Below, one piece after another: positions 1,055 to 41,905 of a DNA stretch of 64,000 nt. The notes under the pieces are model-generated. The model saw nothing but the letters and a program-made list of their open reading frames with translations, did no database searches and was not told the origin of the DNA. Position 1 is the first letter of the stretch. Each line of letters starts with the position of its first letter. The stretch lies in NCBI GenBank assembly GCA_030390025.1, contig JASTWF010000034.1:3844001-3908000 (forward strand). The letters run 5' to 3'. The position numbers and the translations under genes were made by a program. Source of the DNA: Squalus acanthias (lineage: Eukaryota).

Positions 1055-3445
1055 AGATACCTTTGTAGCCACCATATGTCCTCTTCACAATTTACTTTCC
1101 TACCTATCTTTTTGTCATAAGCAAATTTAGCAACCATACCTTCGATCCCTTCATCCAAGACATTTATATAAATTGTAAAAAGTTGAGGCCCCAGCATTAT
1201 CCCTGTGGCACACTACACATTACATTTGCTAAGCAGAAAATGACCCATTTATGCCTACACTCTGTTTCCGGTTAGCTAGCCAATCTTCTATCCATGCCAA
1301 TATGTTACCCCCTACACCATGAGCTTTTATTTTCCGAAATAACCTTTGATGTGGCACCTTATCAAATGCCTTCTGGAATTCTAAGTACAGTACATCCACC
1401 GGTTCCCCTTTATCCACAGCACATGTTACTTCCTCAAAGAACTCCAATAAATTGGTTAAACATGATTTCCCTTTCACAAAACCATGCTGACTCTGCCTGA
1501 TTACCTTGAACTTTTACAAGTGCCCTGCTATAACGTCTTTAATAATAGTTTCTAGCATCTTCCCTAAGACAGGTGTTAAGCTAACTGGCCTGTAGTTTCC
1601 TGCTTTCTGTCTCCCTCCCTTTTTGAATGAAGGAGTTACAATCGCTATTTTCTAATCTAATGGAACCTTCCCCGAATCTAGGGAATTTTGGAAAATTAAA
1701 ACCAACGCATCAACTATCTCACTAGCTACTTCTTTTAAGACCCTAGGATGAAGTCCATCAGGACTCGGGGACTTGTCAGCCCGCATCTCCAACAATTTCC
1801 TCATTACTACTTCCCTGGTGATTGTAATTTTCCTGACTTCCTCCCTCCCTTCCATTTCCTGATCTACAGCTGTTTCTGGAATGTTACTTGTATCCTCTAT
1901 AGTGAAGACCGATGCAAAATACCTGTTCAATTCAACTGCCATCTCCTTATTTTCCATTATTAATTCCCCAGACTCACTTTTTATAGCACCAACGCTCCCT
2001 TTGTGAACTCTTTTCTTTTTAGAATATCGATAGAAACTCTTACTATCTGTTTTTATATTTCTAGCTAGCTTTCTCTCGTACTCTAATTTTTCTCTCCTTA
2101 TTAATCTTTTAGTAATTCGTTGCTGTTTGTTTATATTCTGTCCAATCTTCTGACCTGCCACCCATCTTTGCACAATTATATGCTTTATCTTTAAGTTTGA
2201 TACTATCTTTAACTTTTTTAGGTAACCACGGATGGTGGGTCCTCCCCTTGGTATTTTCCTTTCTCGTTGGAATGGATCTATTCTGTGTATTCTGAAATAT
2301 CCCATTAAATGTCTGCCACTGCAGCTCTATTGACCTATCGCTTACTCTAGTTTGCCAGTTCACTTTAGCTAGCTCTGCTATCATGCCCTCATAATTGCCC
2401 TTATTTAAGTTAAAAAAACTAGTCTTGGACCAACTCTTCTCTCCCTCAAACTGAATGTAACATTCAATCATATTATGATCGCTGCGACCTAGGGGCACCT
2501 TCACTATGTGGTCATTAATTAATCTTATCTTGTTTCACAATACCAGGTCTACTATAGCCTGCTCTCTGGTTGGCTGCAGAACGTGTTCTAAGAAACTGTC
2601 CCAAAAACATTCTATGAACTCATCTAGGCTACCTTTGCCCATCTGATTTTTCATTCTATATGTAGATTAAAATCCCCCATGATTATTGCCGTACCTTTCT
2701 GACAAGCTCCCATTATTTCTTCCTTGATACTCCATCCTAACGTGTGGTTACTGTTAGGGGGCCTGTACACCACTTCCACAAGTGACTTCTTGCCTTCATC
2801 ATTTCTCATCTCTACCCAAACCGCTTCTGCATCCTGGTTTCCTGAACTTTAGTCATCCCTCTATTGCGCTAATACCATTATTAATTTACAGAGCCACCCC
2901 TCCACTTTTTCCTAAATATCATGTACCCTTCAATATTCAGGTCCCAATGTTTGTCATCCTGCAGCCATGTCTCTGTAATAGCTATCAGATTGTACTTATT
3001 TAATTCTATTTACGCCATCAGTTCATCTGTTTTGTTTCGAATGCTTCGTGCATTCAGATACAGAGCCTTTAGTTTTGTCCTTTTGTTATTTTTGTAACCT
3101 TTAGCCTTATCTATTGATTTACTCTTAGATTTGTACTCTCTATCCCTTCCCGTCTCGGTCTGCTTATCATTTCCCATATTAATACCTTTCTCTCTTGTCT
3201 TGTTTCTACTCTTTGATTTACCACATCTTCCCAGATTTGATCCCTGGCCCCCAATATTTAGTTGAAAGCCCTCTCTACCGCCCTAGTTATATGACTCGCC
3301 AGAACACTGGTCCCAGCACGGTTCAGGTGAAGACCAACCCAACGGTACAGTTCCCACTTTCCCCAGTACTGGTGCTAGTGCCCCAGGAAGCGAAACCAAT
3401 TTCTCCCATACCAGTCTTTGAGCTACGCATTCATCTCTCTAATTT
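1055..3445 (-). mobile_element. Decayed CR1 LINE: end of ORF1 esterase, AP endonuclease and RT
   Basis: Frameshifted ORFs with LGRSDHNMI (endonuclease), KSPSPDGLHPRVLKE, SCLTNLLEFFE, FQKAFDKVPH, LGPQLFTIYIN. Confidence 0.92.
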
Positions 3446-6400
3446 GATGGAACAGGGTAGAGGGAGCTATACTTTGTATCTAAACCGTGCTGTATCTGCC
3501 CTGGGAGTGTTCGACAGGTCTTTGTAGAGGGAGCTTTACTCTGTACCTAACCCGTGCACTACCTGCTCTGCGAGTATTTAATGCTACAGTAATGAGGGAG
3601 CTTACTCTTTCAAAACAGTGCTGTACCTGCCCTGGGAGTGTTTGATGGGACGGTGTAGAGGGAGCTTTACTCTGTATCTAACCCTGTGCTGTACCTGCCA
3701 TGGTACTGTTTGATGGGACAGTGCAGAGGGAGTTTTACGCTGTATCTAACCCGTGCTGTACCTGCCCTCGGAATATTTGAAGGATCTTTGTAGAGGAAGC
3801 TTTACTCTGTATGTAACCCGTGCTGTATCTTCCTGGGAATATTTGAAGGGACAGTGCAGAGGAAGCTTTACTTTGCATCAATCCCTGTGCTGTACCTGCC
3901 CTGAGAGTGTTCGATAAGTCTTTGTAGAGGGAGCTTTACTCTGTACCTAACCCGTGCACTACCTGCCCTGCGAGTATGTAATGCTACAGTGATGAGGGAT
4001 TTTTACTCTTTCAAAACAGTGCTGTACCTGCCCTGGGAGTGTTTGATCGGACAGTGTAGATGCAGCTTTACTCTGTATCTAACCCGTGCTGTACCTGCCC
4101 TGGGAGTGTTTGATGTGACAGTGTAGAGGGAGCTTTACTCTGTATCTAACCCCGTGCTGTACCAGCCATGGGGCTTTTTGATGGGACAGTGTAGAGGGAG
4201 CTTTACTCTGTGTCTAACCGGTGCTGTACCTGCCCTGGCAGTTTTTGATACGACAGTGTAAAGGGAGCTTTACTCTGTACCTAATCCATGCATTACTTGC
4301 CCTGAGAGTGTTTGAGGGGACAGTGTAGAGGGAGCTTTATTCGGTATCTAACACGGGCTGTACCTGCCTGAGAAAGTTTGATGCGACAGTTTAGAGGAAG
4401 CTTTACTCTGTATCTAACCCGTGCTGTACCTGCCCTGGGAGTGTTTGATGGGACAGTGTAGAGGGAGCTTTACTCTGTATCTAACCCGTGCTGCACCTGC
4501 CCTGGGAGTGTTTGATAGGACAGTGTAGAGGGAGCTTTACTCTGTATCTAACCCCGTGCACGACCTGCCCTGCGAGTGCTTGATGAGGCAGTGTAGAGGG
4601 AGCTTTACTCTGTACCTAACCCGTGCACGACGTGCCCTGCGACTGTTTGATGGGGCAGTGTAGAGGGAGCTATATTCTGCATTTTACCTGTTCTGTACCT
4701 GCCCTGGGAGCGTTTGATGGGACAGTGCAGAGGGATCTTTACTCTGTAACTAACCTATGCACTAACTTCCCAGCGAGTGTTTGATGGGACAGTTTAGATG
4801 GTGCTTTATTCTATATCTAACCATTGCAGTACCTGCCCTGGGAGTGTATGATGGGATTCTGCAGAGGGATCTTTACTCTGCATCTTACCTGTGCTGTACC
4901 AGTCCTGGGAGTGTTTGATGGGACAGTGTATAGGTAGATTTACTCTGCATCTTACCTGTGCTGTACCTAAACTCTGAGTGTTTGATGGGAAAGTATAGAG
5001 GGAACTTTACTCTGTAACTAACCTGTGCTGCACCTGCCCCGGGACTGTTTGTTGGGACAGTGTAGAGGGAGCTCTAATCTGTATCTAACCATTGTTGTGT
5101 CTGCCCTTGGTGTGTTTGATAGCACAATGTATAGTGAGCTATACTCTGTATCTAACCCGTGCTGTTCCAGACCTGGGAGTGTTTGATGTGATAGTATATA
5201 TGGAGCATTACTCAGTATCTAACCCGTGCTGTACCTGCCCTGGGAGTGTTTCATGCGGCAGTCTAGAGGGAGCTTTACTCTGTATTTAATCCATGCTGTA
5301 CCTGACCTGGGAGTGTTTGATGCAAAAGTGTAGAGGCAGCTTTACTCTGCATCTTACCGTGCAGTACCTGGCCTGGCAGTGTTTGATTTGATACTATACA
5401 GGGAGCTATAGTCAGTATCTAACACGGGCTGTACATGCCTGGGAATATTTGATGGGACAGTGTAGAGCAATATTTACTCTGCATCCAACCCAGTGCTGTA
5501 CTTGCCCTGGGAGTGTTTGATGGGACAGTGTAGCGGGAGCTTTACTCTGTACCTAACCCATGCACTAACTGTCCTGCGAGTGTTTGATGGGACAGTGTAG
5601 AGGGAGCTTGACTCTATATCTAACCCCGTGCTGTACCTGCCATGGGGCTGTTTGATGGGAGAGTGTAGAGGGAGCTTTACTCTGTATCTAACCCGTGCTG
5701 TACCTGCCCTGGGAGTGTTTGATGGGGCAGTTTAGAGGGAGCCTTACTCTGTATCTAACCATTGCTGTACCTGCCCTGGGAGTGTTTGATGGGATTCTGT
5801 AGAGGTATTTTTACTCTGCATCTAACCATTGCTGTACCTGCCCTGGGAGTGTTTGATGGGATTCTGTAGAGAGATCTTGACTCTGCATCTAACCGGTGCT
5901 GTAACTGGTCTGAGAGTGTTTGATGCAACATGTATAGGCAACCTTACTCTGTATCTTACCTGTGCTGTACCTGAAATGGGAGTGTTTGATGGGCCAGTGT
6001 CGAGGGAGCTTTACTCTGTATCTAACCCGTGCTGTACCTGCCCTGGGAGTGTTTGATGGGACAGTGTAGAGGGAGCTTTATTCGGTATCTAACGTGGGCT
6101 GTTCCTGCCTGAGAAAGTTTGATGGGTCAGTGTAGAGGAAGATTTACTCTGTATCTTACCTGAGCTGTAGCTGACCTGGGAGTGTTTCGTGGGAAAGTGT
6201 AGAGGAAGCTTTACTCTGTACCTAACCCGTGCTGTACCTGTCCTGCGAGTGTACGATGGGGCAGTGTAGAGGGAGCTTTACTCTGCATCTAACCTGTGCT
6301 GTAACTGCCCTGCGAGTGTTTGATGGGTCAGTGTAGAGGGAGCTTTATTCGATATCTAACAATTGCAGCACCTGCCCTGGGAGTGTATGATTGGAGTCTG

Positions 6401-11899: not shown

Positions 11900-12980
11900 T
11901 AGCCTCTCTTCCCTCTCCCACATCGTTACCTCTGTTGTCCCCCAAGGATCTCTCCTTGGCCCCCTCCTATTTCTCATCTACACGTTGCCACTTGGTGAAA
12001 TCATCCAGAAACACAGTCAGTTCCCACATGTACGCTGACGACACCCAGCTCTACCTCACTACCTCTTCTCTCGACCCCTCCACGGTGTCTAAATTGTCAG
12101 ACTGCTTGACCGACATGAGCAAAAGTTTCTCCAAGTAAATATTGGGAAGACCGAAGCCATTGTTTTCGGTCCCTGCCAACAAAAACCGTTCCCTTGCCAC
12201 AGACTCAATCCCTCTCTCTAACATCTGTCTGAGGCTGAACCACACTGTTCGCAACATTGGTGTCATATTTGACCCTGAATTGAGCTTCCGACCACATATC
12301 CGCAGCATAACAAAGGCCGCCTACTTCCACCTCCGTAACATCACCCGTCTCCGCCCTTGCTCATCTCATCCGCTGCTGAAACCCTCATCCATGCCTTTGT
12401 TACTTCCAGACTTGACTATTCCAACGCACTCCTGGCTGGCCTCCCACATTCCACCCTATGTAAACTTGAGGTCATCCAAAACTCGGCTGCCCGTGTCCTA
12501 ACTCGCACCAAGTCCCGTTCACCCATCTCCCCTGTGCTCGCTGACCTACACTGGCTCCCGGTTAAGCAGCACCTCGATTTCAAAATTCTCATCCTTGTTT
12601 TCAAATCCCTCCATGGCCTCGCCCCTTCCTATCTCTAATCTCCTTCAGCCCCACAAACCCCCCGAGATATCTGCGCTCCTCTAATTCTGCCCTCTTGAGC
12701 ATCCCTGATTATAATCGCTCAACATTTGGTGGCCGTGCCTTCTGTTGCCTAGGCCCTAAGTTCTGGAATTCCCAGCCTAAACCTCTCCGCCTCGCTACCT
12801 CTCTTTCCTCCTTGAAGACGCTCATTAAAACCTTCCACTTTGACCAAGCTTTTAGTCACCTGTCCGAATTTATCCTGATGTGGCTCAATGTCAAAATTGT
12901 TTGTCTTAAAATACTCCTGTGAAGCGACTTGGGACGTTTTACTACGTTAAAGGTGCTATTTAAATACAAGTTATTGTTGT
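11900..12980 (+). mobile_element. L2-clade LINE 3' fragment
   Basis: HMYADDTQLY, HAFVTSRLDYSNALLAGLP, PVLADLHWLPV, GGRAF...WNS; 3'UTR TGTGAAGCG...ATACAAGTTATTGTTG. Confidence 0.9.
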
Positions 12981-12994
12981 ACATCTCTGGCTCT

Positions 12995-13100
12995 ATAGAA
13001 TCATAGAATGGTTACAGCACAGAAGGAGGCCTTACGGCCCATCGAGGCCGTGCCGGCTCTCTGCAAGAGCACTTCAGCAAGTCCCACTTATCCAATCCCC
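12995..13100 (-). mobile_element. CR1-type 3' tail fragment
   Basis: ATAGAATCATAGAATGGTTACAGCACAGAAGGAGGCC is the reverse complement of a CR1 3' end with (ATTCTATG)n. Confidence 0.7.
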
Positions 13101-13102
13101 TT

Positions 13103-16100
13103 TTGATATACTCCACACCCCTCACTGTAACACTGATATACCCCACACCCCTCACTGTAACACTGATATACCCCACACCCCTCACTGTAACACTGATATA
13201 CCTCACACCCCTCACTGTAACACTGATATACCCCACACCCCTCACTGTAACACTGATATACCCCACACCCCTCACTGTAACACTGATATACCCCACACCC
13301 CTCACTGTAACACTGATATACTCCACACCCCTCACTGTAACACTGATATACCCCACACCCCTCACTGTAACACTGATATACCCCACACCCCTCACTGTAA
13401 CACTGATATACCCCACACCCCTCACTGTAACACTGATATACCCCACACCCCTAACTGTAACACGGATATACCCCACACCCCTCACTGTAACACGGATATA
13501 CCCCACACCCCTCACTGTAACACTGATATACCCCACACCCCTCACTGTAACACACTGATATACCGCACACCCCTCACTGTAACACTGATATACCCCACAC
13601 CCCTCACTGTAACACGGATATACCCCACACCCCTCACTGTAACACTGATATACCCCACACCCCTCACTGTAACACACTGATATACCCCACACCCCTCACT
13701 GTAACACTGATATACTCCACACCCCTCATTGTAACACTGATATACCCCACACCCCTCACTGTAACACTGATATACCCCACACCCCTCACTGTTACACTGA
13801 TATACCCCACACCCCTCACTGTAACACTGATATACCCCACACCCCTCACTGTAACACTGATATACTCCACACCCCTCACTGTTACACTGATATACCCCAC
13901 ACCCCTCACTGTAACACTGATATACCCCACACCCCTCACTGTAACACTGATATACACTACACCCCTCACTGTAACACTGATATACTCCACACCCCTCACA
14001 GTAACACTGATATAAACCACACCCCTCACTGTAACACTGATATACCCCACACCCCTCACTGCAACACTGATATACCCCACACCCCTCACTGTAACACTGA
14101 TATACCCTACACCCCTCACTGTAACACTGATATACTCCACACCCCTCACAGTAACACTGATATACCCCACACCCCTCACTGTAACACTGATATACCCCAC
14201 ACCCCTCACTGACACACTGATATACTCCACACCCCTCACTGTAACACTGATATACCCCACACCCCTCACTGCAACACTGATATACTCCACACCCCTCACT
14301 GTAACACTGATATACCCCACACCCCTCACTGTAACACTGATATACCTCACACCCCTCACTGTAACACTGATATACATCACACCCCTCACTGTAACACTGA
14401 TATACCCCACACCCCTCACTGTAACACACTGATATACCCCACACCCCTCACTGTAACACTGATATACCCCACACCCCTCACTGTAACACTGATATACCCC
14501 ACACCCCTCACTGTAACACTGATATACCCCACACCCCTCACTGTAACACTGATATACCCCACACCCCTCACTGTAACACTGATATACCCCACACCCCTCA
14601 CTGTAACACTGATATACTCCACACCCCTCACTGTAACACTCTGATATACCCCACACCCCTCACTGTAACACTGATATACCCCACACCCCTCACTGTAACA
14701 CTGATATACCCCACACCCCTCACTGTAACACTGATATATCCCACACCCCTCACTGTAACACTGATATACTCCACACCCCTAACTGTAACACTGATATACC
14801 CCACACCCCTCACTGTAACACTGATATACCCCACACCCCTCACTGTAACACTGATATACTCCACACCCCTCACTGTAACACTGATATACCCCACACCCCA
14901 CACTGTAACATTGATATACCACTCACCCCTCACTGTAACACTGAAATACCCCACACCCCTCACTGTAACACTGATATAACCCACACCCCTCACAGTAACA
15001 CTGATATACCCCACACCCCTCACTGTAACACTGATATACTCCACACCCCTCACTGTAACACTGAAATACCCCACACCCCTCACTGTAACACTGATATACC
15101 CCACACCCCTCACTAACACTGATATACCCCACACCCCTCATTGTAAAACTGATATACCCCACACCCCTCACTATGGGCAGCACGGTGGCATAGTGGTTAG
15201 CACTGGTGCCTCACAGCGCCAGGGACCCGGGTTCGAATCTGGCCTCGGGTGACTGTCTGTGTGGAGTTTGCACATTGTCTGCGTGGGTTTCCTCCGGGTG
15301 CTCCGGTTTCCTCCCACAGTCCAAACATGTGCGGGTTAGGTTGATTTGGCTATGATAAATTGACCCTTAGTGTTAGGGGGGGATTAAATATGTGGGGTTA
15401 CGGGGATAGGGTAGGAAGGGATATGTTAGGGGGAATTAAATACGTGGGGTTACGGGGATAGGGTGGGATATGTGTCGGTGCAGGCTCGATGGGGATTCTG
15501 TGTGAGAAAGCATGGATAGGGTACTGGATTTGGATGATCAGCCATGATCGTATTGAATGGTGCAGCAGGCTCGACGGGCCGAATGGCCTACTCCTGCTCC
15601 TAATTTCTATGTTTCTATGTAACACGGATGCACCCCACACCCCTCACTGTAACACTGATATACCCCACACCCCTCACTGTAACACTGATATACCCCACAC
15701 CCCTCACTGTAAAACTGATATACCTCACACCCCTCACTGTAACACTGATATAACACACACACCTCACTGTAAAATTGATATACCCCACACCCCTCACTGT
15801 GACACTGATATAACACACACACCACACTGTAACATTGATGTACCCCACACCCCTCACTGTGACACTGATATAACACACACACCTCACTGTAAAACTGATA
15901 TACCTCACACCCCTCACTGTAAAACTGATATAACACACACACCTCACTGTAAAATTGATATACCCCACACCCCTCACTGTAACACTGATATACCCCACAC
16001 CACTCATTCTAACACTGATATACCCCACTCGTAACACTGATATACCCCACACCCCTCACTGTAACACTGATATACCTCACACCTCTCACTGTAACACTGA

Positions 16101-17343
16101 TATAACCCTCACCCCTCACTGTAACACTGAAATACCCCACACCCCTCACTGTAACACTGATATACCCCACACCCCTCACTGTAACACTAATACACCCCAC
16201 ACCCGTCACTGTAACACTAATATACCCCACACCCCTCACTGTAACACTAATATACCCCACACCCCTCACTGTAACACTGATATACCCCACACACCTCACT
16301 GTGAAACTGATATACCCCATACCCTTCACTGTAACAATGATATACCCCACACCCCTCACTGTAACACTGATATACCTCACACCCCTCAATGTAACACTGA
16401 TATACAGCACACCCCTCACTGTAACACTGATATACCCCACACCCCTCACTGAAACACTGATATACCCCACACCCCTCACTTTAACACTGATGTACCCCAC
16501 ACCCCTCACTGTAACTTGACATACCCCACACCCCTCAATGTAACACTGATATACCCACACCCCTCACTGTAACACTGATATACCCCACACCCCTCACTGT
16601 AACACTGATATAACCCACACCCCTGACTGTAACACTGATATACCCCACACCCCTCACTGTAACACTGATATACCCCACACCCCTCAATGTAACACGCTGA
16701 TATACCCCACACCCCTCACTGTAACGCTGATATACCCCACACCCCTCACTGAAATACTGATATACCCGACACCCCTCACTGTAATACTGATATACCCCAC
16801 ACCCCTCAATGTAACACGCTGATATACCCCACACCCCTCACTGTAACACTGATATACCCCACACCTCTCACCAACACTGATATACCCCACACCCCTCACT
16901 GTAACACTGATATACCCCACACCCCTCACTGCAGCACTGAAATACCCCACACCCATCACTGTAACACTGTTATACACCACACCCCTCACTGTAGCATTGA
17001 TATACCCCACACCCCTCACTAACACTGATATACCCCAAACCCCTAACTGTAACACTGATATACCCCTCAGTGTAACATTGATATACCCCACTGCCCTCAC
17101 TGTAACACTGATATACCCCTCACTGTAACATTGATATACCCCACACCCCTTACTGTAACACTGATATACCCCACACCCCTCACTGTAACACTAAAATACC
17201 CCACACCCCTCACTGTAACACTGAAAGACCCCACACCCCTCACTGTAACACTGATATACCTCACACTCCTCACTGTAACACTTTTATTCCATACACCCCT
17301 CACTAACGCTGATATACCCTACTCCCCTCACTTTAACACTCTG
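13103..17343. repeat. 30-bp minisatellite, interrupted by a SINE
   Basis: Unit CCCCACACCCCTCACTGTAACACTGATATA; near-perfect in the left half, more degenerate in the right half. Confidence 0.97.
15175..15619 (+). mobile_element. tRNA-derived SINE (HE1/V-SINE type)
   Basis: Same head, central domain and tail as 7654-8082, with a small deletion in the central domain. Confidence 0.9.
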
Positions 17344-17354
17344 ATTCGCTGGAA

Positions 17355-17653
17355 AGGCGAGCTGCTGGTTGTGTGGGCCAGTGAGCTGCTGGTTGAGTAC
17401 GCCAGTGAGCTGCTGGTTTTGTGGGCCAGTGAGCTGCTGGTTTAGTGGGGAGGTGAGCTGCTGGTTTAGTGGAGAGGTGAGCTGCTGGTTTAGTGGGGCG
17501 GTGACCTGCTGGTTAAGTGGGGAGGTGAGCTGCTGCTTTAGTGGGGAGGTGAGCTGCTGGTTAAGTGGGGAGGTGAGCTGCTGGTTTAGTGGGGAGGTGA
17601 CCTGCTGGTTTAGTGGGGAGGTGAGCTGCTGGTTTAGTGGGGAGGTGAGCTGT
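17355..17653. repeat. 24-bp minisatellite
   Basis: Unit GTGGGGAGGTGAGCTGCTGGTTTA. Confidence 0.9.
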
Positions 17654-17962
17654 TATCATTCCTTGTGCTTGCCCATTGATCTCTATTAGTTTGTTCTTTA
17701 CTCTGCCACACAGGAGTGTTAATTACCTGCTTCTGTAACCTTCAAACCCTCACAGCTTCCAATGTCCTTTACAAAAGGGACTGATTCTCTGGCCACACTC
17801 CCCAGCAGTCCTCCAGACTCGCTGCTGACATTAAATTCAATCTTCACACTCTCCCATGCTCGGCAGCAGATGTGCGTCTTTCTGGACTGTGTTTTAACTT
17901 AACTTAATCACTAGTTACTCTAGCTTAATATTGATATAATTCTATATCTCAACCAGTGGACT

Positions 17963-36636: not shown

Positions 36637-36857
36637 ACCACTGTCTCTCCCTCCCGCTCCATACCATTTATGTTCCTGATGCTGGTCCAGCTCGGGTTCC
36701 CCAGCCACAGTTACTCTGCCGTTTGTTCCACGTATTCCAGGGTCCACTTTGCTGGACAGGTCACAGCGGGGTCTAAGGGTAGAGGAAGATTCATAAGTCA
36801 AACACCATTTAAAGTCAAACAGTCAGAGCGGCCGTAATCACCCTCAGGACCGTAACC

Positions 36858-37356
36858 GCAATGCCCAGGGTCAGTGGCCCTGTACCCACAATGCCCAGTA
36901 TCAGTGACCTGTACCCACAACGCCCAGTGTCAGTGGCCCTGTACCCACAATGCCCAGTGTCAGTGACCCTGTACCCACAATGCCCAGGGTCAGTGGCCCT
37001 GTACCCACAATGCCCAAGGTCAGTGATCCCGCGTCCATAATGCACGGGGTCAGTGGCCCTGTACCCACAATGCCCAGGGTCAGTGGCCCTGTACCCACAA
37101 TGCCCACGGTCAGTGGCCCTGTACCCACAATGCCCAGGGTTAGTGGCCCTGTACCCACAATGCCCAAGGTCAGTGTCCCTGTACCCACAATGCCCAGTGT
37201 CAGTGGCCCTGTACCCACAATGCCCAGGGTCAGTGGCCCTGTACCCACAATGCCCAGGGTCAATGGCCCTGTACCCACAATGCCCATGGGTCAGTGGCCC
37301 TGTACCCACAATGCCCAGTGTCAGTGACCCTGTACCCACAATGCCCAGGGTCAGTC
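36858..37356. repeat. 30-bp minisatellite (second family)
   Basis: Unit CAGTGGCCCTGTACCCACAATGCCCAGGGT. Confidence 0.95.
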
Positions 37357-37357
37357 A

Positions 37358-38995
37358 CTGTGGGGCAAACCCGGGTTTCCGTGGTAAACCTTTAACCATT
37401 ACCTTAGTCCCGGCTGGAGGGATATAGGGGAACGCGGTCAATTCTAAATCCTTGTCCTTTTCTTCCTGTCTGTCTCGCGTTTGCTGCCTCATTTCCTTTA
37501 ATTGACTGCTTCATTCGAGGACATACCTTCGGAGCTTATCCTTTAGAGGACCCACATCCTCTCCTCCAGTTATTATGCCATGGGGGATTTGCCCTCTCCG
37601 TCATTAGCTCATATGATGATAAGGCCGTTGTTCGGTTTGGGGTGGCTCTTAGTTTCATTAAGACTGCCGGTAACACATCTGCCCACTGTTGATGTTTTTC
37701 CCCTAAAGCCTTGGCTAAGGCTGTTTTCAAGGTTCGGTTCATTCATTCCACCATTCCAGAACTTTGGGGATGGTACGGAATGTGGAATTTCTGCTTTATG
37801 CCATTCCACTTGCATACATTCTTCACTACTGCTCCCGTAAAGTGAGTTCCCTGATCTGAGTCAATTTGGATCGGTATTCTCCATCTGGGAATTATTTCCT
37901 CTGCTATTATTGGTGCCACGGTGGTGGCAATACAGTTCCGGTTTGGGAATGCCTCGACCCACCTAGTAAACTGGTCTCTTATTACCAGGCAATACTTCTT
38001 ACCCCTTGATGTGGGGAGGGTTCCGGTGAAGTCTATTTGTATATTTTCCCATGGGCCCCTTGGCCGTGGTTGGTGGGCCATCCGTATCTTAACGGGTCGT
38101 CCTGGGTTGTGCTGGGCACACGCGATACACCGCTGGCACTGTTTTGCCACATCTCTTCCTAACCCAGGCCACCACCATTCTTTACTAATCAGGTCAATCA
38201 TCGGCCCCCTTCCTGTATGGGCGTCTCCATGGTGTAGTTCTAAGAGCATTTGTCTGATACATGTGGGGTGTATCATCCGCCCGTTGTTACGCCATATAGC
38301 ATCCTTGTCTGGTCTACCTCCTGTGCGGTACCATTCCTGTTTCTCCCCTTCTTGGGGCTCTTTGTGTAATTTTCTAATATCTATTTCTTCCACCTGTGCA
38401 CTGGCTACGTTTTCTTCAACCATTTCTTTTTCAAGAGCTTACTCTGCTGCTAAATCAGCGGCATGGTTCCCTTTTTGTGCCTGATTTTGTATTTTCTGGT
38501 GCGACTTTATTTTTATTACTGCTGCTAGTGTTGGAGCCTTTGCAGCTTCCAAGAGGGCCGCTGCTGCTGTTTCATACGATCCCCTCCTGTTGCTACAACC
38601 CCCTTCTTCCCCAGGCAGTCATATAATCGTGTATGACTCCAAACGCTTACTTCTATCCATGTAGATATTTGCCGTTTTTCCCTTCGCTTATTCTAGCGCC
38701 TTCGTCAGCGCCACTAGCTCAGCCACTTGAGCTGATAGTCCTCCGTCCAGCCTTCCTGATAATTCAGTCTCTAACTGACTATTTACTACCGCCCATCCGG
38801 TTTGTGAGGATCCCTCTACATGTTTCCTAGATCCGTCCACGTAGAGAGTAATCTGGGGCTCGGGGAGGGGCTCATCTTGAAAAAATCCAGCCTCATCTTC
38901 CCCTTGTAGCTCGCAACATCTGTGGGGATCTCCCTGTCCTCGCAATCCTTCTGCTGGGTTTCCCCAATGTCGCATACTATTTTGACTGACTGATC
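37358..38995 (-). pseudogene. pol: Endogenous retrovirus pol remnant: connection/RNase H and integrase
   Basis: NPA...PHRC, LYVDGS...GWAVV...SAQVAELVAL (RNase H); HHCC zinc finger, IQIDFTG, DSDQGTHF, YHPQSSGMVE*MNRTLK (DDE integrase); stops and frameshifts. Confidence 0.93.
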
Positions 38996-39686
38996 AACGG
39001 GGATGGAGATCGTGGATATCCCACATCTCCTCGAGATTTCTCCAAAATGCTCCATGTGCGCTACGGGACTGCAATGTTCCCAAATCTTTCAATATTGTTT
39101 GTTTTCCTAAGGCGCTAAAAGCTTGCTACTTCGCTGTGGGATTTTGTACCGTTCCCCCTCTTTTTAAAGGGGCTGCTTTGACTACGTTTGGTTTCTCCTG
39201 CCCTTTTTCTAGGTTTTCGTCGTCACTATCCTCCGTTGGGCGGACTGATGCCTCTGGGGCGTAAGGAGGTGGTATTTCGTCCTCACTTTCGGAGCCCTGT
39301 ACTTTTACCGGGGCGCACAAATGTGCCTGCCTTTCGTTCCACAGTTCCGTTTTGTCCAGCCGGTACCCATCAAGGACCGTCTGGCCTCCTTTGTATAACA
39401 ATAACTCTTGTTCTAATTCCAGAATTATTTCATTTTTACTTGCAAGTCTAGTGTGGACTCGCTGCACCTTGTTAGTTAATGCGACTAATTGGTTTACTAG
39501 TATCACCCCCGCCTTTTTTGTCTTTTTCTGTTTTTGACCCTCCCACTACTCTCTTTGAGCTTTCGGATTCTTAAGCGAGTCCCACCCCGTCTTCGTCATC
39601 TTATCAACTAAAATCTTCCGGTCGTCTGCATAGAACCTAATAAGGGACCCCGTTGATCCCCATTCTATTTCTTTCCCCGATGCCAT
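38996..39686 (-). pseudogene. gag: Endogenous retrovirus gag N-terminal remnant
   Basis: ATG 39686 (MASGKEIEWG) downstream of PBS and leader; coiled-coil-like stretch, PPPY late-domain motif, then probable start of capsid. Confidence 0.7.
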
Positions 39687-40160
39687 TTTGTAGTCCAACT
39701 TACAATCTTACCAAATGCTGAGTTCCTCTACTCAGGTTTGTTCTTGATACCTTCAAGACCTTCTAGCGGAAATTAGTCACAACATACATATATATATATT
39801 TCTTGACTTCACGATCCCAGGGTGCTTTGGAGCCTCTACACCTACTTGATCCTGGCCATCACGTGGGACTACGTCCTCTTAATTCAGGCTCAGGCTACGT
39901 GTTTCAGACATGCACAATCCTTGTCTTTGTCGTTTCATCACTCACTCATTCATTCGCGACATTTATCGCTACACAGTGTTCCCTTTAGTACTTGCGATCC
40001 ACACTCTCACAACTGTGTTCTCCTACCTCTCACAGACTTTGCTTGATTCTTGTATCTACGGCACTGTCACTCCGCCTTTCCAGGTGACTCAATTTCTGTA
40101 CGGGCAAAATTGACTTCTCTTCTGGATTCACTGGTGCGGGCGGTCTTTCAGTTCCGGAGC

Positions 40161-40178
40161 ATCCTGTTGACTATGCCA
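40161..40178 (-). promoter_or_regulatory. Primer-binding site, tRNA-Ser type
   Basis: TGGCATAGTCAACAGGAT, 15/18 to the tRNA-Ser complement TGGCGTAGTCGGCAGGAT; 2 nt after the LTR-terminal CA. Confidence 0.8.
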
Positions 40179-40180
40179 AT

Positions 40181-40766
40181 TGTTGATGAAAAATAAATTC
40201 ACTGGAGTCTGTCTCGAGGCAGAAGCTCACAGTTTATTATACAGGGCGATCTGGGAGAAGAGCCATAGACACCGCGGTATAGTGTTCAACTTCTCGTCGT
40301 TACAGTGGTATCGGAACTTCTTTTATACATTATAGGGCCGGTAACGCAATTCGCTACAGACAAATGTCTCCACCAAATCACATTCCCCTAGCAACAAGCC
40401 CCATACCCAATCATGTATCTCCACCACTGACTTGATTATAACCTGCACTTTGAGCTAAATTTCCTTGTTACTTCCCTTCTGAAACTATAAACATATAGAG
40501 TGTTGCGCCACATCTGCATTTCCGGTCTGACTGGTCATGCGGTGATTGGTTCTCAGGTGCAACCGTTGTGCTATTATCGTAGTCGTTTGTTCCTCCTTGG
40601 TGGGCTTCAAGTTGTCTCGCACGTACGCATGTTGATGTTAGACATTACTTATCGCACTGTAGCAGCGAAGCCATTCTGTCTTGTCTCATTTACGAGTCCA
40701 CCTTTTCCAGCACATTCTTTAACTCTTTACGTTGCTGCTTTAAGACCCATAATTTTCACCCTAACA
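40181..40766 (-). mobile_element. 5' LTR of the tRNA-Ser-primed ERV (about 586 bp)
   Basis: TGTT...AACA termini; TATAAAA 40327-40321 and AATAAA 40238-40233 in U3-R-U5 order; followed by the PBS. Confidence 0.75.
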
Positions 40767-40898
40767 TACGTTAAAGAGCCACTATCTGTTAGAAAACCTA
40801 AAATTCCACCAGGATCTTCGTTGATCAGACGAAAATCCAACCGAAAATCCAAAGGCCTGCTTTATGCACAATAGACCTGATTTCAGTTAATAGTCACA

Positions 40899-40916
40899 GC
40901 CTCTCGTTGGGCGCCA
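40899..40916 (-). promoter_or_regulatory. Primer-binding site, tRNA-Lys(1,2) type
   Basis: TGGCGCCCAACGAGAGGC, 16/18 to TGGCGCCCAACGTGGGGC; 3 nt after the LTR-terminal CA. Confidence 0.85.
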
Positions 40917-40919
40917 AAT

Positions 40920-41683
40920 TGTAGCTTCCAAAAGCTCTTATAATAATTTGTCCGTGACTCCAGAAACCACTCTGCGTACAGGTATATTGTGTATCAGTAA
41001 AATAGGTTTATTAAGCATGAAACATCCAGTAAAAAGAAGGAATACTTAACAAGGAGATAGTCACAGTCTTGTTCATTGAACCCCGGCGTTCCTTCCGAGC
41101 GACTGTGGCGCGGTCTCTTTCTTCTCTTGCTGTTTTCTCTTGACTGAAGCTCCTTCACCTCTGGTTCGCGCTGCCTTCAGTGTTCAAAATCCGTATCTTT
41201 ATATACCTTTTTTCCCCTCTCCCTACGTGAATGCAAACAGCTATCCGACACAATAAATGTTTTATGACCTTGTTGATCCCACTCGGACTCGCTTTGTGCA
41301 TATCAAAGGGCCCTTTGAACTTTAGATATTCTCTTTCTAAAAACCATTTCCCAAGATGTTGTCTAAACATTTTGTCCATTTTATAGTAGTTATCACTGTG
41401 GGGTACTTCTCTTATCTCTCTCTCTTCTCCAACTCTTATCTCTTTTCTATCACATTACTGAATACCACGTCCCTGATAGTCTCCATAAACTTAGCATTCC
41501 ATTCCATTACTTCAGTAATTGCAAACAGAGCGAGTTTCAGTCAGGTTAGCACAATTTCCCATCCTGCTTCTCTCTCAGCCATTCGCCATTTTATACAGGC
41601 TTTAAGGCTTTTAACAGAAAATTTCACATATTATAGATAGACAAAAATGTTTACTAAATCATACAAATGCACCCTATCCTACA
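40920..41683 (-). mobile_element. 5' LTR of a second, tRNA-Lys-primed LTR element (about 764 bp)
   Basis: TGTAG...CTACA termini; TATATAAA 41205-41198; AATAAA 41012-41007; followed by the PBS. Confidence 0.8.
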
Positions 41684-41905
41684 GGTGCGGGTTATATCAG
41701 TGTGTTACAGTAAGGGGTGTGGGTTATGTCAGAGTGTTACATTGAGGGGTGTCGAGTATATCAGAGTATTAAGGTGAGGTGCGCGGGGTAGTTCAGTCTG
41801 TTACAGAGAGAGTTTTGGGATATGTAAGAGAGGATTAAACTGAGGGGTATATCACGGTGTTAAAGTGAATGGTGTGGTGTATATCAGAGTGTTAAAGTGA
41901 GGTGA
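41684..41905. repeat. Degenerate reverse-strand relative of the 30-bp minisatellite at 13103-17343
   Basis: Repeated TATATCAG(TG)TGTTACAGTGAGGGGTG-like units. Confidence 0.7.

Follow-up and report, generated by a model that had tools for sequence, protein, structure and literature searches.

The window analysed here, a 64-kb stretch of the Squalus acanthias genome, carries on its minus strand two unrelated retroviral start modules in series (Table 1). Read along that strand, a minisatellite flank is followed by an LTR (LTR-A), a primer-binding site (PBS), a 132-bp leader, a second LTR (LTR-B), a second PBS, a 474-bp leader and gag. The ends and motifs of both LTRs, the two primer types and the first leader of about 130 bp were all found where the initial annotation had placed them, and the arrangement is confirmed as a real structure. 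Each LTR has short inverted ends, with TATAAA and AATAAA in the expected order. No second copy of LTR-A or LTR-B was found within the 64-kb window, and neither 3′ LTR lies in it. The remainder of the window is made up of satellites and LINE remains.

Table 1. Features of the two retroviral start modules, the coding remains and the flanks (positions in the window)
Feature	Positions	Strand	Remarks
Host flank, 30-32-bp minisatellite family	41684..41900	.	Target of provirus A; TRF 41684-41771
LTR-A, 764 bp, 5′ LTR of provirus A	40920..41683	-	TGTAG...CTACA; TATAAA 41203; AATAAA 41012
PBS of A, tRNA-Lys1,2 type, 16/18	40899..40916	-	Against the PBS of reference retroviruses L121 and L128; 3-nt spacer after LTR-A
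A leader, first 132 bp	40767..40898	-	A-family sequence abuts LTR-B without intervening host DNA
LTR-B, 586 bp, 5′ LTR of provirus B	40181..40766	-	TGTT...AACA; TATAAA 40327; AATAAA 40238
PBS of B, tRNA-Ser type, 15/18	40161..40178	-	Against the complement of the human tRNA-Ser 3′ end; 2-nt spacer after LTR-B
B leader, 474 bp	39687..40160	-	Two splice-donor-like sites just 5′ of gag (39711, 39703)
Broken gag of B	38997..39686	-	First 230 codons, interrupted by two in-frame stops and ended by the internal deletion
Internal deletion joint, gag to start of RNase H	38960..39023	-	gag homology ends at ~38997-39001, pol starts at ~38960-39023
Broken RNase H and integrase of B	37360..38960	-	Interrupted by stops and frame changes; lacks the integrase C-terminus
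30-bp tandem array, 16.8 copies	36852..37355	.	Proviral sequence ends here; 3′ parts of A and B absent beyond

The TGTAG that opens LTR-A at 41683 lies at the exact point where the flanking minisatellite ends, and minisatellite contigs diverged from the window at 41684-41693 in four of four runs. This flanking minisatellite is 75-77% like an array at about 12950-17700, 25 kb away and in the opposite orientation. By the spacing of its motifs, element A has an R-like region of roughly 180 nt. The Lys PBS was the only site with at least 14 matches when both strands of the window were scanned, while 0.003 sites of 16 or more matches would be expected by chance. No canonical splice donor (GT[AG]AG) was found between the start of A and LTR-B, and the R-U5-leader of A folded no better than shuffled sequences (z -0.43). 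A pattern scan for the LTR-A end followed by a Lys PBS returned 2 viral and 51 metagenome loci, none of the 53 related to the element. Two contigs filed in a Brevinema metagenome-assembled genome (L058 and L059) are retroviral, L058 with gag, pol and env-like frames, and are host DNA contaminating a bacterial bin.

The 5′ end of LTR-B is weak by motif alone and is backed by X3 record 22, a contig in which homology ends at 40766; another contig of the same set, X3 record 19, spans LTR-B into the PBS. For the Ser PBS, too, no other site in the window, on either strand, reached 14 matches; the reference was the 3′ end of a human tRNA (sequence from an excerpt of PMC3299991). Scans for the LTR-B end joined to a Ser PBS and for the tRNA-Ser motif each returned no locus, and ARAGORN found no tRNA in the 64-kb window.

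The single gag-pol that had been annotated downstream of LTR-B proved to be broken. There is no intact reading frame for it; an N-terminal part of Gag is fused to RNase H-integrase, which is cut off at 37355. Compared with relatives, the deletion joint has cost roughly 240 codons of Gag and 570 of Pol, and most of the capsid, the nucleocapsid, the protease and the reverse transcriptase (RT) are absent from B. Other copies run on past this joint, among them an X1 sequence with a loose end at 39001 and X11 record 9, which ends at 38965. The pol remains matched the Pfam families RNase_H (E 3.7e-7), Integrase_H2C2 (E 8.5e-13) and rve (E 7.1e-16). Gag of B had 10 relatives at E up to 0.001, including a Heterodontus protein, and was 32% identical to one relative, P0046, over 217 columns; it matched no Pfam family and, in a word-indexed search, none of the longer proteins. 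The named protein relatives came from sawshark, horn shark and catshark, in keeping with a cartilaginous fish host. A related-loci search with the integrase of the window gave no confirmed viral locus, and profile scans returned distant references and host contaminants only. The integrase frame runs straight into the 30-bp array, which occurs nowhere else in the window and marks the 3′ loss of both proviruses. Within 38600-39650, several gag bins had summed depths of 3,000-5,200 in X1, against 450-580 for RNase H bins. Depth is a poor measure of copies, and this difference only hints that family B may have many internally deleted members.

The two LTRs are unrelated, as had been annotated, their best local match being 15 nt (E 0.66). 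The 20 bases upstream of LTR-B contain 10 purines and do not form a polypurine tract. LTR-B was accordingly rejected as the 3′ LTR of A, on the absence of both a polypurine tract and any A-B similarity, in agreement with the initial annotation. That annotation had also allowed that 40181-41683 might be one long LTR of a single family. This was rejected, since homology breaks at 40766/40767 from both sides and a PBS matching at 16 of 18 positions lies inside. A TRIM-like tandem or three-LTR complex (TA-TRIM, shared-LTR) was rejected as well; the internal LTR is not homologous to the terminal one, and no polypurine tract precedes it.

When 39700-41700 was searched against runs, 23 runs were listed, the best of which held 0.38-0.42 of the sampled words. 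None of the runs listed as holding the sequence is RNA with certainty. Four of the 23 were compared with 38600-41740 at 80% likeness, yielding 2,634, 2,466, 664 and 1,939 records. The individual records described below are among the 32 of 7,752 pieces listed; 24 of 780 loose ends were listed as well, as were 40 of 470 differing places. Cover was found in 30 of 30 bins in each of the four runs, and LTR-A, the spacer, LTR-B and the interior of B are therefore all repeated families. The possibility, raised in the initial annotation, that one of the LTRs lacks other genomic copies thus does not apply. Summed contig depth, which is not copy number, was in the thousands for LTR-A in X1 and X3. Within LTR-A, a stretch of 53 bp close to the 3′ end (40950-41002) reached about 288,000 in X11, against about 1,300-6,000 in neighbouring bins, and was also raised in X3 (about 38,000) and X1 (about 11,000). 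With joints in X11 that go back 53, this stretch resembles a tandem satellite derived from a portion of the LTR-A family.

Several contigs bear on the boundary between the two modules. X11 record 13 fits 40767-40959 and then shows 148 unlike letters that start exactly at the LTR-B boundary, and X11 record 14 fits 40771-40947, followed by 56 unlike letters. By these two records, sequence of the A family extends to the very base that precedes LTR-B, and in other places it continues without LTR-B. From the opposite side, X3 record 22 fits 40600-40766 and is followed by 27 unlike letters, so the B family starts at its own TG and elsewhere has another flank. Judged by these alignments, X11 records 13 and 14 are the presumptive equivalent, in another organism, of an empty site for B, although the unlike letters of record 13 could be yet another LTR and not the leader of A itself. 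In X11 the A leader bin had a depth of 1,333, against 34-190 for the body of LTR-B, which indicates that most A leaders there have no such LTR-B behind them. Among the 32 of 7,752 pieces listed there was no empty-site record for organism A, and none of the 24 of 780 loose ends listed fell at 40766/40767.

The junction itself is bridged by at least one contig, X1 record 5, the only one of its kind among the 32 of 7,752 pieces listed. This contig (279 nt, depth 40.8) spans 40607-40886; over 280 positions it has 9 differing letters and 1 gap, a difference of 3.6% from the window (95% interval 1.7-6.5%). Its depth is low, within that of other low-depth X1 records (18.6-65.6), the sum for the junction bin is 1,141, and its flank is unseen. 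Because it bridges the same joint, the junction is not an assembly artefact; it is present in another genome in non-identical form and is not unique to the assembly of the window. All 16 listed records of X1 and X3 differ from the window, the smallest number of differences being 3 in 142. Four of the eight listed X1 records (1, 3, 5 and 6; depth 26-44) have 25 substitutions in 737 letters, or 2-4% along the element, a tally that leaves out four listed X1 records differing by 11-18%. Such a pattern is compatible with a single orthologous locus of a related species and equally with nearest paralogues; X1 record 5 can likewise be read as an orthologue or as a second copy.

We consider it probable that the locus arose by nested insertion, with a Lys-primed provirus, A, lying in the minisatellite and an unrelated Ser-primed provirus, B, later inserted 132 bp into the leader of A in the same orientation. 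The inner element starts exactly at its own LTR terminus inside the outer one (A-family homology ends at 40767, B-family homology at 40766), and the outer family apparently occurs without the insert in X11 records 13 and 14, which belong to another organism. The mass of satellites and LINE remains in the window is also a setting in which nesting is expected, and nested LTR elements and secondary LTR integrations are described as common (excerpts of PMC1950507 and PMC4724089). As the sharp flank boundary suggests, A would have integrated into the minisatellite first. The integrase of B would then have joined the U3 end of B into the leader of A, as the precise end at the LTR-B terminus and the records resembling an empty site suggest; the same orientation of the two elements would have been a one-in-two chance. 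Subsequently B would have suffered its internal deletion, and everything 3′ of the integrase, including the 3′ LTR of B and the rest of A, would have been lost, presumably by a later deletion or rearrangement that ended at the 30-bp array. The tandem layout would on this account be a fossil rather than a design, each PBS having served its own element only. The locus is most likely an ordinary nested pair of endogenous retroviruses (ERVs), both now dead, with an ordinary cause.

The initial annotation had offered two readings, an ERV integrated into the leader of another or a composite element mobilised as a unit. The breaks at 40767 and 40766 favour the first, as a nesting in the same orientation. 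The second has in its favour one low-depth contig with a copy of the junction that differs by 3.6% from the window, and it runs against the way in which LTR elements are copied. In its non-autonomous form the composite would be a deleted element, formed after B had landed in an A provirus, that is bounded by two A LTRs, carries the parts of B (LTR-B, the Ser PBS and the coding remains) as cargo and is copied by a helper from the Lys PBS, in the manner of Harlequin. We regard this as unlikely. The internal deletion would shorten the element to a packageable size, and Harlequin provides a precedent for an internal foreign LTR, with 68 well-fitting chains (excerpts of PMC5753468 and PMC4724089). 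The difference of X1 record 5 at the junction is also near the ∼2.8% that separates the window from the nearest sequence in X1 (word share 0.42), but X1 records 1, 3, 5 and 6 fit a single orthologous locus in a related species equally well, the bridging contig has low depth, and no contig bridging the gag/RNase H deletion was found among the 32 of 7,752 pieces listed.

By general retrovirology, moreover, an RNA started in LTR-A reads through the whole U3-R of B and meets an intact AATAAA at 40238, where it is expected to end, and there is no canonical donor upstream by which this signal could be skipped. An RNA ending at the poly(A) site of B has unlike R ends and no polypurine tract, and one started in LTR-B begins in the R of B and leaves A behind. 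Copying as a unit would need read-through to a 3′ LTR of A, none of which is seen in the window. A family of the Harlequin type would show the same LTR at both ends and a polypurine tract before the 3′ one; no second LTR-A or LTR-B was found in the 64 kb, which may reflect later loss. We therefore hold spread as a two-promoter, two-primer unit to be mechanistically unlikely, though not impossible. It is doubtful that cartilaginous fishes harbour a Harlequin-like family in which Lys and Ser promoter/primer modules in series were retrotransposed as a unit by read-through of the inner poly(A) signal.

Passive multiplication of a single nested insertion, by segmental duplication or rearrangement of the satellite region, would predict a few junction copies with shared flanks. 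A second, different junction haplotype does exist, and the region is dense in tandem arrays, with the flanking minisatellite recurring in the window. That haplotype may nevertheless be the orthologue of another species, and with no second copy in 64 kb we consider such multiplication very unlikely. That two independent neighbouring proviruses were joined by deletion or recombination instead of integration is extremely unlikely even at a locus where two or more further large deletions have occurred, since a random deletion rarely stops exactly at the terminal TG of B without leaving host DNA, and X11 record 13 aligns the A-family leader to the last base before LTR-B.

As a one-off nest, the locus orders two ERV families in time, with A before B at this site. 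Should the second junction be an orthologue, the nest would serve as a marker that predates a species split. Were the junction instead present at many loci, each with its own flanks, it would represent a natural retroviral genome with two promoters and two tRNA primer sites, and would offer a test of how the poly(A) signal of an internal LTR is bypassed. In a literature search run without most subscription journals and supplements, neither this junction nor a fish ERV with two LTRs and two PBSs was found described.

With regard to classification, the names given to the reference viruses are presumptive and follow from their lengths; L122, from its length and layout, is presumably snakehead retrovirus. 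Element A stays unclassified, with no A coding sequence in the window and a Lys PBS that is common to foamy and non-foamy records. Its Lys1,2 PBS is that of foamy-like elements and is not diagnostic, L128 having the same 18 bases. In the integrase tree, which has long-branch joins (L121 with L122), B falls together with a sawshark protein and with P0004, P0005 and P0053 at 100/94. RT is absent from the window, and P0053, the nearest full-length relative of B, served as a proxy. The RT of P0053 is 44% identical to L122, whereas its identity to the epsilon, gamma and foamy-type references is 36-40%. In the RT tree P0053 falls outside the epsilon and gamma clade (100/100), at an open fork that includes L122; by this proxy only, B does not fall within class I (epsilon/gamma). 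A Gag relative, P0048, matched the Gag of L122 (E 1.4e-7). With the integrase of B itself closer to an epsilon record than to L122, the signal is mixed, and B appears to lean only tentatively towards snakehead retrovirus. All three full-length Gag relatives that were scanned matched zf-CCHC, two of them above the Pfam cut-off; the copy of B itself lacks that part. Since its Gag relatives carry Cys-His boxes and the fish foamy-like Gags, as described in excerpts of PMC5210030, are without them, B is probably not foamy. Prototype foamy virus was the best PDB match of the integrase (E 1.7e-35); it was rejected as a classifier, as the trees disagree and few retroviral genera are in the set.

Sharks are known to carry snakehead-like, epsilon-like and foamy-like ERVs (excerpts of PMC4422223, PMC5512871 and PMC6001957), and no cartilaginous fish appears among the lokiretrovirus hosts listed in the available sections of PMC7947760. 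Like the foamy-like ERVs of fishes and sharks, as far as the available text of PMC5512871 and PMC5210030 goes, A has its Lys1,2 PBS after CA and a short AT spacer, as in L121, and the R-like region of roughly 180 nt is a further point of likeness; this PBS is, however, also found in L128 and L129, which are non-foamy by their RT. B resembles ERVs related to snakehead retrovirus, such as clade Huo (PMC6001957, in part) and lineage I of the elephant shark CmiERVs (PMC4422223, in part), in that its proxy RT is nearest to L122 among the reference viruses and in the L122 match of the Gag relative P0048. It differs in that the RT tree leaves P0053 and L122 at an open fork and in its own integrase, which is 33% identical to L122 against 41% to an epsilon record. 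The Ser PBS of B is shared with the class III ERVs HERV-S and XtERV-S (excerpts of PMC5210030 and PMC8278194). The two Lys sites in Drosophila gypsy that PMC1635307 deals with are a different arrangement. Human HARLEQUIN, given as LTR2-HERVE-MER57I-LTR8-MER4I-HERVI-HERVE-LTR2 in the available parts of PMC5753468 and PMC4724089, is a mosaic ERV in which, as here, further internal sequence lies behind an internal unrelated LTR. Its terminal LTRs match and it exists in dozens of copies, whereas the present locus shows no 3′ LTR in the window and at most one other copy of its junction among the 32 of 7,752 pieces listed. The nested LTR elements and secondary ERV integrations on record (PMC1950507 and PMC4724089, in part) likewise show a foreign LTR in the sense direction inside a provirus. 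In contrast to those nests, the inner element here keeps its PBS and coding remains while the 3′ halves of both proviruses are lost, leaving two start modules in a row.
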